A stretch of DNA of 64,000 nt from the NCBI GenBank assembly GCA_951406725.2, contig OX597836.1, forward strand, positions 11,036,001 to 11,100,000, written 5' to 3'. This DNA is from Octopus vulgaris (taxonomy: Eukaryota). Position 1 is the first letter of the stretch. Each line of letters begins with the position of its first letter. The notes beneath the pieces were generated by a model. It was not told the DNA's origin, made no database searches, and was given only the letters and a program-made list of their open reading frames with translations. Position numbers and translations under genes: made by a program. Of the stretch, positions 20,783-57,114 are shown in pieces.

Positions 20783-20799
20783 AGATCATCGTCATACAA

Positions 20800-20855
<56 letters not shown>

Positions 20856-20858
<3 letters not shown>

Positions 20859-21051
20859 GGTCCCGGGTTGAGTCGGCGTTAACCACAGTAAATAAGGTAC
20901 TCAATACATAGCAGAGTAAAGTAATTTATTTTATAGAAGGAGCTTCTACAGGACTAGAACTGTTTCATTCAGATGAAATCTTCAGGAAGCTTCCTGAAGA
21001 TTTCATCTGAATGAAACAGTTCTAGTCCTGTAGAAGCTCCTTCTATAAAAT

Positions 21052-21054
<3 letters not shown>
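20856..21054 (-). mobile_element. Palindromic hammerhead-bearing Penelope-type short element in (TA)n, copy 1
   Basis: 130-bp perfect spacer-less palindrome 20925-21054 plus a ~70-bp unique flank; inverted homologue at 56673-56872. Confidence 0.8.
20988..21038 (+). ncRNA. Type I hammerhead ribozyme motif (mirror copy on minus strand at 20941-20991)
   Basis: Stem I AGCTTC/GAAGCT, core CTGAAGA, stem II TTC-ATCT-GAA, GAAA, stem III ACAG/CTGT, GUA cleavage triplet at 21030-21032; position 10.1-11.1 is a U-U mismatch. Confidence 0.75.
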
Positions 21055-21133
<79 letters not shown>

Positions 21134-40720: not shown

Positions 40721-40759
40721 GAATATATTTAATGAAATGAGAGTGGCGACCTGGAAGAA

Positions 40760-41343
40760 TTTCTTTACTACCCACAAGGGGCTAAACACAGAGGAGACAA
40801 ACAAGGACAGACACACGGACTAAGTCGATTATATCGACCCCAGTGCGTAACAGGTACTTATTCTATCGACCCCGAAAGGATGAAAGGTAAAGTCGACCTC
40901 GGAGGAATTTGAACTCAGAATGTAACGGCAGACGAAATACCTATTTCTTTACTACCCACAAGGGGCTAAACACAGAGAGGACAAACAAGGACAGACACAC
41001 GGATGAAGTTGATTATATCGACCCTAGTGCGTAACTGGTACTTATTTAATCGACCCCGAAAGGATGAAAGGCAAAGTCGACCTCGGAGGAATTTGAACTC
41101 AGAATGTAACGGCAGACGACAGAAAGGTCAGCACATGGGGCTAAACACAGAGGGGACAAACAAGGACAGACAAACGGATTAAGTCGATTATATCGACCCC
41201 AGTGCGTAACTGGTACTTATTTAATCGACTCCGAAAGGATGAAAGGCAAAGTCGATCTCGGCGGAATTTGAACTCAGAACGTAACGGCAGACGAAATCCC
41301 GCTAAGCATTTCACCCGGCGTGCTAACGATTCTGCCAGCTCGC
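40760..41343 (-). mobile_element. Young SINE B tandem trimer
   Basis: Three ~180-bp units TTTACTACCCACAAGGGGCTAAACACAGAG..GACCCCGAAAGGATGAAAGGCAAAGTCGACCTCGG..GAACTCAGAA; only the last carries the full tRNA head. Confidence 0.92.
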
Positions 41344-42041: not shown

Positions 42042-42590
42042 GCGGCGAGCTGGCAGAATCGTTAGCACGCCAGGCGAAATGCGTAGCCGTATTTCGTCTG
42101 CCGTTACGATCTGAGTTCAAATTCCGCCGAGGTCGAGTTTGCATTTCATCCTTTCGGGGTCAATAAATTAAGTACCATTTACGCACTGGGGTCGATGTAA
42201 TGGACTTAATCCGTTTGTCTATCCTTGTTTGTTTCCTCTGTGTTTAGCCCCTTGTGTGTAGTAAAGAAATAGGTATTTCATCTGCCGTTACGATCTGAGT
42301 TCAAATTCCGCCGATCTCGACTTTGCATTTCATCCTTTCGGGGTCGATAAATTAAGTACCAGTTACGCACTGGGGTCGATGTAATGGACTTAATCCGTTC
42401 GTCTGTCCTTGTTTGCTCCCTCTATGCATAGCCCCTTGTGGGCAATAAAGTAATAAGATACATTAGCACGCCAAGCAAAATGCTTAGCAGTATTTCGTCT
42501 GCCGTACTTTCTGAGTTCAAATTCCGCCGAGGTCGACTTTGCTCCAATATGGCCGCAGTCAAATGACCAAAAGAAGTAAAAAAAAGTAAA
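42042..42590 (+). mobile_element. Young SINE B tandem array ending in a SINE A tail
   Basis: GCGGCGAGCTGGCAGAATCGTTAGCACG head, repeated body, third head fused at ~42541 to GCTCCAATATGGCCGCAGTCAAATGAC. Confidence 0.9.
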
Positions 42591-55939: not shown

Positions 55940-56482
55940 GTACATATAAAAAAAAAAAAACTGGGACAAGAATGCAAGACATTTAGAAGACGATACAAAA
56001 AACACGAACGGGACATTCGAAGCCTTCAATCTTCAGTCAAGAACCGGATCATCCTCGCAATTTCGGCTGATTAATCTTGAGATTACTCCTGGCCAGCCCC
56101 AAATGAAAATCTAAGCCAATATATATATATATATATATATATATGCACGTATATCTTTATATGTGTGTGTATGTGTGTAGGTGGGTGGGTGTCGTTATCT
56201 GTGTTTGTCGCCTCTCCCACCACCTACATCACAACCGGTGTTGGTTTGTTTATGTCATCGCAATTGAGCGTATAACGATGTCGTTTTGTTTGTGTCTGTC
56301 TTCGTCACTGCTTGACAACTAGCGTTGCTTTTTTTCCTCTTACGTCACCGTAACTTAGTGGTCCGGTAAAAGGAAACGATGAAGTAAATACCAAACTTGA
56401 AAAATAAGTATCGGGGTCAAGTTTTCAAGTAAATCACTTCAAGGCGGTGCTTCAGCGTGGCCACAGCCCAAAAGCTTAAACC

Positions 56483-56618: not shown

Positions 56619-56672
<54 letters not shown>

Positions 56673-56678
<6 letters not shown>

Positions 56679-56872
56679 TTTATAGAAGGAGCTTCTACAG
56701 GACTAGAACTGTTTCATTCAGATGAAATCTTCAGGAAGCTTCCTGATGATTTCTTTTGAATGAAACAGTTCTAGTCCTGTAGAAGCTCCTTCTATAAAAT
56801 AAATTAATTTACTCTGCTATGTATTGAGTACCTTATTTACTGTGGTTAGCCCCGACTCAACCCGGGACCTAC
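56673..56872 (+). mobile_element. Palindromic hammerhead-bearing element in (TA)n, copy 2
   Basis: Palindrome 56673-56804 centred on GGAAGCTTCC with 3 mismatches, then the same unique flank as copy 1 in inverted orientation. Confidence 0.8.
56737..56787 (+). ncRNA. Type I hammerhead ribozyme motif
   Basis: AGCTTC-CTGATGA-T-TTC-TTTT-GAA-T-GAAA-CAG-TTCTAGTC-CTG-TA-GAAGCT. Confidence 0.75.
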
Positions 56873-57114
56873 ACATATATATATATATATATATATGCAA
56901 ACATACATAAATTTATATATACATACATTATATGTATATATATATATACTATATATATGTGTGTATGTTTGTGTGCGTTGTTTCTGTTTGTCTGTCTGTC
57001 TATCTATGTATGATATTGCTATTGTCATTTAGCGTTAGGTCAAATTTATCTATACGTAAGGGTAAAATGGAAAATGTTGAAAATGCTTTTCATACGACCA
57101 CATCTCATTAATAG

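Follow-up and report, generated by a model that had tools for sequence, protein, structure and literature searches.

A mixed-subfamily palindrome of Penelope-like retrotransposon ends in Octopus vulgaris and a possible second RNA template at insertion

The palindrome at 56673-56804 of the window (the whole 64,000-nucleotide stretch that was analysed) consists of two head-to-head, 5'-truncated ends of a Penelope-like retrotransposon, with a tail-bearing arm of subfamily B and a short arm of subfamily A. It is plausible, though tentative, that the reverse transcriptase (RT) used a second RNA in the course of one insertion. Elsewhere in the family, the two arms of a palindrome almost always share one template (over 98% at the N7 position of the hammerhead motif).

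The mixed palindrome and its element family

The centre of the palindrome lies between 56738 and 56739 (Table 1). The original prediction gave exactly three mismatches between the arms, and this count is right: the internal mismatched pairs are 56730/56747, 56723/56754 and 56721/56756, and the next one, 56672/56805, stands at the arm end. On the + strand arm, read in the sense of the hammerhead, 56747 is N7 (TGA versus AGA), and 56754 and 56756 are positions 1 and 3 of loop II (TTTT versus ATCT). It had also been claimed that core and stems are unchanged and that the other arm is identical to a first copy in the window. Indeed, the arms agree in every core letter and in all 12 helix pairs, and the short arm equals the arm of copy 1 (20799-21054), a perfect palindrome in the opposite orientation. 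The tail differs from that of copy 1 at 56807, 56849 and 56851 as well, which the earlier reading did not mention. With the subfamily marker at 56807 included, the tail-bearing arm is of type B and the short arm of type A; as a description, the proposal of arms from different subfamilies therefore holds. The change at 56849 is likely private. A G at this position was rejected as a subfamily marker: it occurs on several backgrounds in a set picked by similarity and, outside that set, in two tail arms including this copy. The AGCT of the junction is native to all subfamilies seen.

Table 1. Features of the mixed palindrome and of its nearest relative (positions in the window)
Feature	Position	Strand	Basis
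(TA)n target, left flank	56622..56673	.	sequence
Short arm without tail (inverted pLTR end); type AGA/ATCT of subfamily A, identical to copy 1 arm	56673..56741	-	
Predicted type I hammerhead of short arm, N7 at 56730	56690..56740	-	mirror of + strand motif
Self-complementary junction AAGCTT, common to both arms	56736..56741	.	
Tail-bearing arm (pLTR end and tail), subfamily B type: TGA/TTTT, A at 56807	56736..56872	+	
Predicted type I hammerhead, tail-bearing arm	56737..56787	+	core and helix pattern
Stem I	56737-42/56782-87	+	
Stem II	56751-53/56758-60	+	
Stem III	56766-68/56777-79	+	
Core (N7 at 56747)	56743-49 and 56762-65	+	
Loop II	56754-57	+	
U·U	56750/56761	+	
Predicted cut position	after 56781	+	
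Competing hairpin (8 bp) whose predicted extent takes in the cut site and stem I 3' strand	56778..56796	+	
Tail, on one arm only	56805..56872	+	
(TA)n target, right flank	56875..56896	.	sequence
Copy 1, the nearest family member (distance 35.7 kb), a palindrome of subfamily A only	20858..21055	-	

The hammerhead was assigned from its core and helix pattern: the type I core (CUGANGA, GAAA, NUH) and three helices are all present, matching the descriptor in the available text of PMC8557442, where N7 is free. Rfam reported no hammerhead at the gathering score in the whole window, nor at E<=10 in 56720-56880. Helix II is atypical, being 3 bp long and closed by a U·U; the G10.1-C11.1 closing pair is missing, with U·U at 10.1/11.1 in 200/200 cells. 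Loop II is loosely constrained in hammerheads. The predicted hammerhead fold has an energy of -7.4 to -8.0 kcal/mol, and the minimum-energy fold is a different one. A transcript through the mixed copy is predicted to form a single hairpin of -97 kcal/mol, which means that selection cannot act on a ribozyme at this copy. The locus is debris with no likely function. The competing hairpin is conserved and ends just short of the tail-less end point; it could be an off-switch of the ribozyme or mark an RT start site.

The locus is an inverted, 5'-truncated end of a Penelope-like retrotransposon, probably of Hydra type, inserted in (TA)n, and insertion in (TA)n was seen for the window copies and the inspected loci. 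A 25-mer from the arm has 6060 exact matches in the 2.8-Gb genome; the family comprises thousands of copies. In all of the 106 paired loci (106/106), one arm is tailed and the other is tail-less, and the tail-less arm stops at the pLTR end. Longer copies run upstream into a 3' region and then into an ORF with RT and GIY-YIG motifs, which the window copy is without. At one locus (L061), both motifs, recognized by inspection, lie between outward-facing ends. There were 139 ORF matches scored, and the family end was found in 28 of the 32 ORF loci that were fetched, A and B types among them. Atlas matches of the ORF, at 0.94-0.98, were to clusters of which some are labelled RVT_1, GIY-YIG or HTH_animal. 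Pfam gave no RT or GIY-YIG match for the ORF, and the PDB search returned nothing informative.

Among 12 ORF loci, DKT (a modified DKG) was found in five, which are those that reach that far. The CxCX5C linker, together with CxxC and CxH beside conserved E and N, was also found in five of the 12, those whose fetched stretch includes the C-terminus. At the likely site of RWK, four of the 12 have RWR and none has RWK. The deduced DKT, CxCX5C, CxxC-E and N-CxH motifs would fit the Hydra clade as it is described in the portion of PMC8557442 at hand. The ATGs in the motif and tail meet a stop within four codons. Adjoining another family end is an open frame of 1015 codons with LINE endonuclease and RT motifs (L051:2004-5048). 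At L239:1857-2068, the tail of a subfamily A element directly adjoins a subfamily C palindrome, which seems to have gone into the (TA)n flanking that element.

Subfamilies and constraint on the hammerhead

Four haplotypes recur in 222 arms that cover N7 and loop II, a sample that includes targeted fetches: C (A/TCTT) in 79, B (T/TTTT) in 64, D (T/ATTT) in 28 and A (A/ATCT) in 20. The changes of the mixed copy are therefore not private, as its two arm variants, TGA/TTTT and AGA/ATCT, are those of B and A. C is the commonest and youngest subfamily. Over 135 nt upstream, A and B show 0.208 differences per site (4 A arms versus 1 B arm), which indicates distinct lineages. Private change amounts to 1.2% in A versus 0.43% in B (p=0.04), and A looks older than B. 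Four-gamete violations at N7 point to exchange or recurrent change among lineages. Pairing of N7 with loop II position 1 was also considered, and no association was found. One element (L242:277) has a D-type hammerhead with A-like upstream sequence, which suggests an intermediate or recombinant lineage.

The original prediction proposed selection on ribozyme structure in the source elements. Two arms of one insertion offer a simple way of showing such selection: alleles on both arms were taken as inherited from the template and alleles on one arm as private, in 106 pairs. The 51 motif positions were divided into 13 free and 38 core or stem positions. Of nine inherited alleles, eight occupy free positions and one a core or stem position (p=1.2e-4). 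Private alleles are distributed as the site numbers predict (28 core or stem versus 17 free, p=0.18), and the contrast between inherited and private alleles has p=0.008. As an upstream control, A and B differ at 0/38 constrained sites, where about 8 differences are expected from the upstream rate (p=1.4e-4). Substitutions that reached the source elements are thus not uniform over the motif, and the proposal is supported within three limits: the tail is equally conserved, there is no compensatory pair, and the activity is predicted. In the flank and tail, A and B differ at 1 site, so the conservation extends beyond the ribozyme. All inherited alleles but one leave the helices unchanged, and hence nothing is able to covary. 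Loop III is nearly invariant, and recurrent change also affects N7 and position 1 of loop II. Judged from the sequences, the "neutral" positions likely reflect purifying selection on the predicted hammerhead fold in master lineages, not in this copy.

Frequency of mixed arms and origin of the mixed copy

A set of 648 palindromes was defined by matches to the central 30-mer with N7 left free, and the counts apply to this centre only. The arms are mixed for AGA and TGA in 5 of the 648, versus about 320 expected under random pairing; among the 50 matches listed, 27 are AGA, 22 TGA and 1 mixed. One of the five has an inverted arm of only 22 nt (L063) and was left out of the mosaic counts. Two differ at N7 alone, and about two such cases are expected from point change. 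The remaining two are multi-site mosaics: the copy described here and L067. Three pairs with two flagged differences were not counted as mosaics, as these are gaps or alignment shifts. The exact A/B mix occurs once among the palindromes, in the copy at 56673-56804; pure A palindromes number 31. Of 93 pairs that were chosen without regard to mixing, 48 have identical arms and no pair shows differences at two family substitutions, where random pairing would give 66%. The long loci with two or more ends are concordant in 8 of 8 cases. Mosaics that involve C number 0 versus about 272 expected by random pairing, and those of A with B or D number 2 versus about 32 (Fisher p=0.011). When B-with-A is compared with B-with-C alone, the difference is not significant (p=0.12).

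Homogenisation of one arm by the other was rejected as the cause of arm identity. At constrained sites there is 1 both-arm allele versus 28 one-arm alleles, which indicates that the likeness of the arms dates from their origin and did not arise by later homogenisation. An A/T difference between arms at loop II position 1 occurs in 11 palindromes, namely this copy and 10 TGA/TGA palindromes, with none among AGA/AGA; for the TGA class, 0.9 are expected. In 4 of these 10, the same rare allele is on both arms. This shows that the position changes without a second template and is a hot spot as well as a marker of B versus D. In L196-L206, an A at the equivalent of 56754 perfects two local inverted repeats, and templated mutation is therefore possible.

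In L067, the tail-bearing arm carries an A tail and a D head. This haplotype has 1 match genome-wide, by which the arm was rejected as a natural subfamily and is read as a within-arm patch, not a whole second arm. Another locus, L202 (G000:C20:63840516), carries the A-type tail marker; its heads are D on one arm and B on the other, and both arms share a change at U16.1 of the core. The switch intervals of L067 and L202 include the predicted cut site. One or both G just past this site (equivalents of 56782-56785) are lost on one arm in 9/122 palindrome arms and 1/48 long-element arms; these are per-sequence tallies, and part of the long set was chosen by exact match across that stretch. For comparison, the tail sites have 0 gaps in about 4950. 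The one-arm losses may be sequencing error, hairpin slippage or a cleavage scar.

If a second RNA was used, the insertion could have proceeded as follows. A separate cDNA would be primed at each end of the cut target, with synthesis beginning at the tail end for one and at the pLTR end for the other, and their 3' ends would then be joined by microhomology through the self-complementary AGCT. Normally, both cDNAs would come from one RNA or one source locus. In less than 1% of insertions, a cDNA would be made from, or jump to, the RNA of another co-expressed subfamily. Past the AGCT, the native sequence of the four subfamilies could add no more than 0-1 base pair to a fold-back stem. With tails strictly on one arm and no spacer at the AGCT junction, this would fit two cDNAs joined by microhomology. 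The one-tail layout of the paired loci also agrees with the available text of PMC11167929, which has RT starting at two sites, cleavage of both strands and a predicted dimer. The lack of mosaics with C, the youngest and commonest subfamily, is expected if only co-active subfamilies mix, and leans towards a second RNA.

Several observations speak against a second RNA: there are only two multi-site mosaics in the 648, the long multi-end loci are all concordant, A appears older than B, the B-with-A excess over B-with-C is not significant, and loop II position 1 is mutable unaided. All three differences lie within 10 nt, and a short patch explains them equally. A pure B palindrome may have been patched later by ectopic gene conversion of 10-69 nt of the short arm from an A donor, an explanation that deserves weight even if it is on balance doubtful. 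Copy 1 is a possible donor. It is of type A, identical to the short arm and, of the three family members within 284 kb, the closest (a post hoc chance of about 0.04), and L067 provides the precedent of a within-arm patch; both points count for conversion and against a second RNA. However, the short arm is the common A sequence, so that its identity to copy 1 is not diagnostic. L067 has no A-type neighbour within 100 kb on either side, and no mosaic carries alleles of C, which is the most abundant donor.

The same lack of C argues against an assembly error, in which miscalled bases in a short, microsatellite-flanked palindrome were replaced on the basis of reads that came from a different subfamily, as does the finding that both arms are gap-free, exact subfamily sequences. 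This explanation is unlikely without being negligible: nanopore calls fail in inverted duplicates (as the accessible part of PMC7229812 has it), unique read placement is impossible at the locus, and the G losses in palindrome arms stand against an absence of gaps in the tail, although the rate in long elements is not clearly different from that in palindromes. None of the Logan public contigs spans the locus. Recombination between A and B palindromes at their centres, with loss of the DNA between them, would bring together the short arm of an A copy and the tail arm of a B copy and yield one whole arm per type with one tail. With 5 elements in 484 kb, or about 1 per 100 kb locally, the required deletion is large, and L067 is left unexplained; we consider such an event very improbable. 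Hardly any weight falls on three independent point mutations in one arm. Loop II position 1 and N7 change often, but even at hot-spot rates the triple change is expected in about 1.4e-4 palindromes of the class genome-wide, so that the pattern is not chance, and the outcome equals a known subfamily. An inversion between copies 1 and 2 was rejected, since both inner arms are of type A and a swap explains nothing.

The earlier suggestion of a template switch rather than simple fold-back synthesis goes further than the data: mixed palindromes are rare, the exact A/B mix was seen once, and conversion and assembly error taken together explain the copy about as well. A wider proposal, which we hold to be doubtful, is that inverted Penelope insertions in general are two separately primed cDNAs joined at AGCT, and that the rare mosaics record movement of the RT between subfamily RNAs, possibly at the hammerhead cut. 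If true, such mosaics would speak, at the genomic level, for cleavage by the ribozyme in vivo and against self-priming by fold-back.

Relation to known Penelope-like elements

The type of element, its hammerhead and the inverted layout are already known. As far as the available text of Craig et al. 2021 (PMC8557442) goes, Hydra-clade elements share the C-terminal GIY-YIG domain, DKT, the CxCX5C linker and CxxC/CxH around E and N, as well as the 3'-end hammerhead, the (TA)n target and inverted 5'-truncated copies tailed at one end. The octopus family differs in having RWR at the likely place of RWK and a tail of about 66 nt versus 30-40 nt, and at L061 about 3.2 kb of microsatellite-rich DNA lies past the ORF, versus less than 3 kb described there. 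Minimal metazoan hammerheads of Penelope-like elements (Cervera and de la Pena 2014, PMC4209133, cited for part of its text) likewise have a type I motif in the pLTR, a palindromic loop III and sequence families within one genome. In contrast, helix II is 3 bp here versus 7-8, G10.1-C11.1 is absent, and the octopus family has no compensatory changes.

The Penelope elements of Adineta vaga (Arkhipova et al. 2013, PMC3846280) also have inverted pLTRs that meet head to head in a palindrome, with only one arm tailed, and the part of that article available explains these palindromes by self-priming, with an antisense strand as template. If it was made at insertion, a palindrome of mixed subfamilies does not fit fold-back on a single template. 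In vitro work on PAc Poseidon (Frangieh et al. 2024, PMC11167929) found that two RT start sites bound the tail and that both strands are cut and extended, and a dimer was predicted. Its AT-rich target and a hammerhead that is inactive without protein are further likenesses, whereas the Poseidon ORF starts within the hammerhead and the ATGs of the octopus motif and tail are soon stopped. Inverted products and mixed templates are not reported in the available portion of that paper.

The formation of inverted Penelope-like ends is stated as an open question in the available parts of PMC8557442 and PMC3846280. In the open-access literature searched, no description of mixed-subfamily arms in Penelope palindromes was found. 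Thousands of young copies with marked subfamilies turn the frequency with which arms share a template into something that can be counted. The value of the analysis lies in these counts, which make the template question testable, and not in the locus at 56673-56804 itself. A few mosaics could separate the joining of two cDNAs from fold-back, if confirmed at read level.

Two further repeats were noted in the window. The left flank of the mixed copy (56230-56474) is an older high-copy repeat, for which public contigs show high depth and many joints. A 361-nt inverted repeat pair at 40759-41119 and 42094-42454, 88% complementary and 974 nt apart, likely represents two copies of another repeat family.
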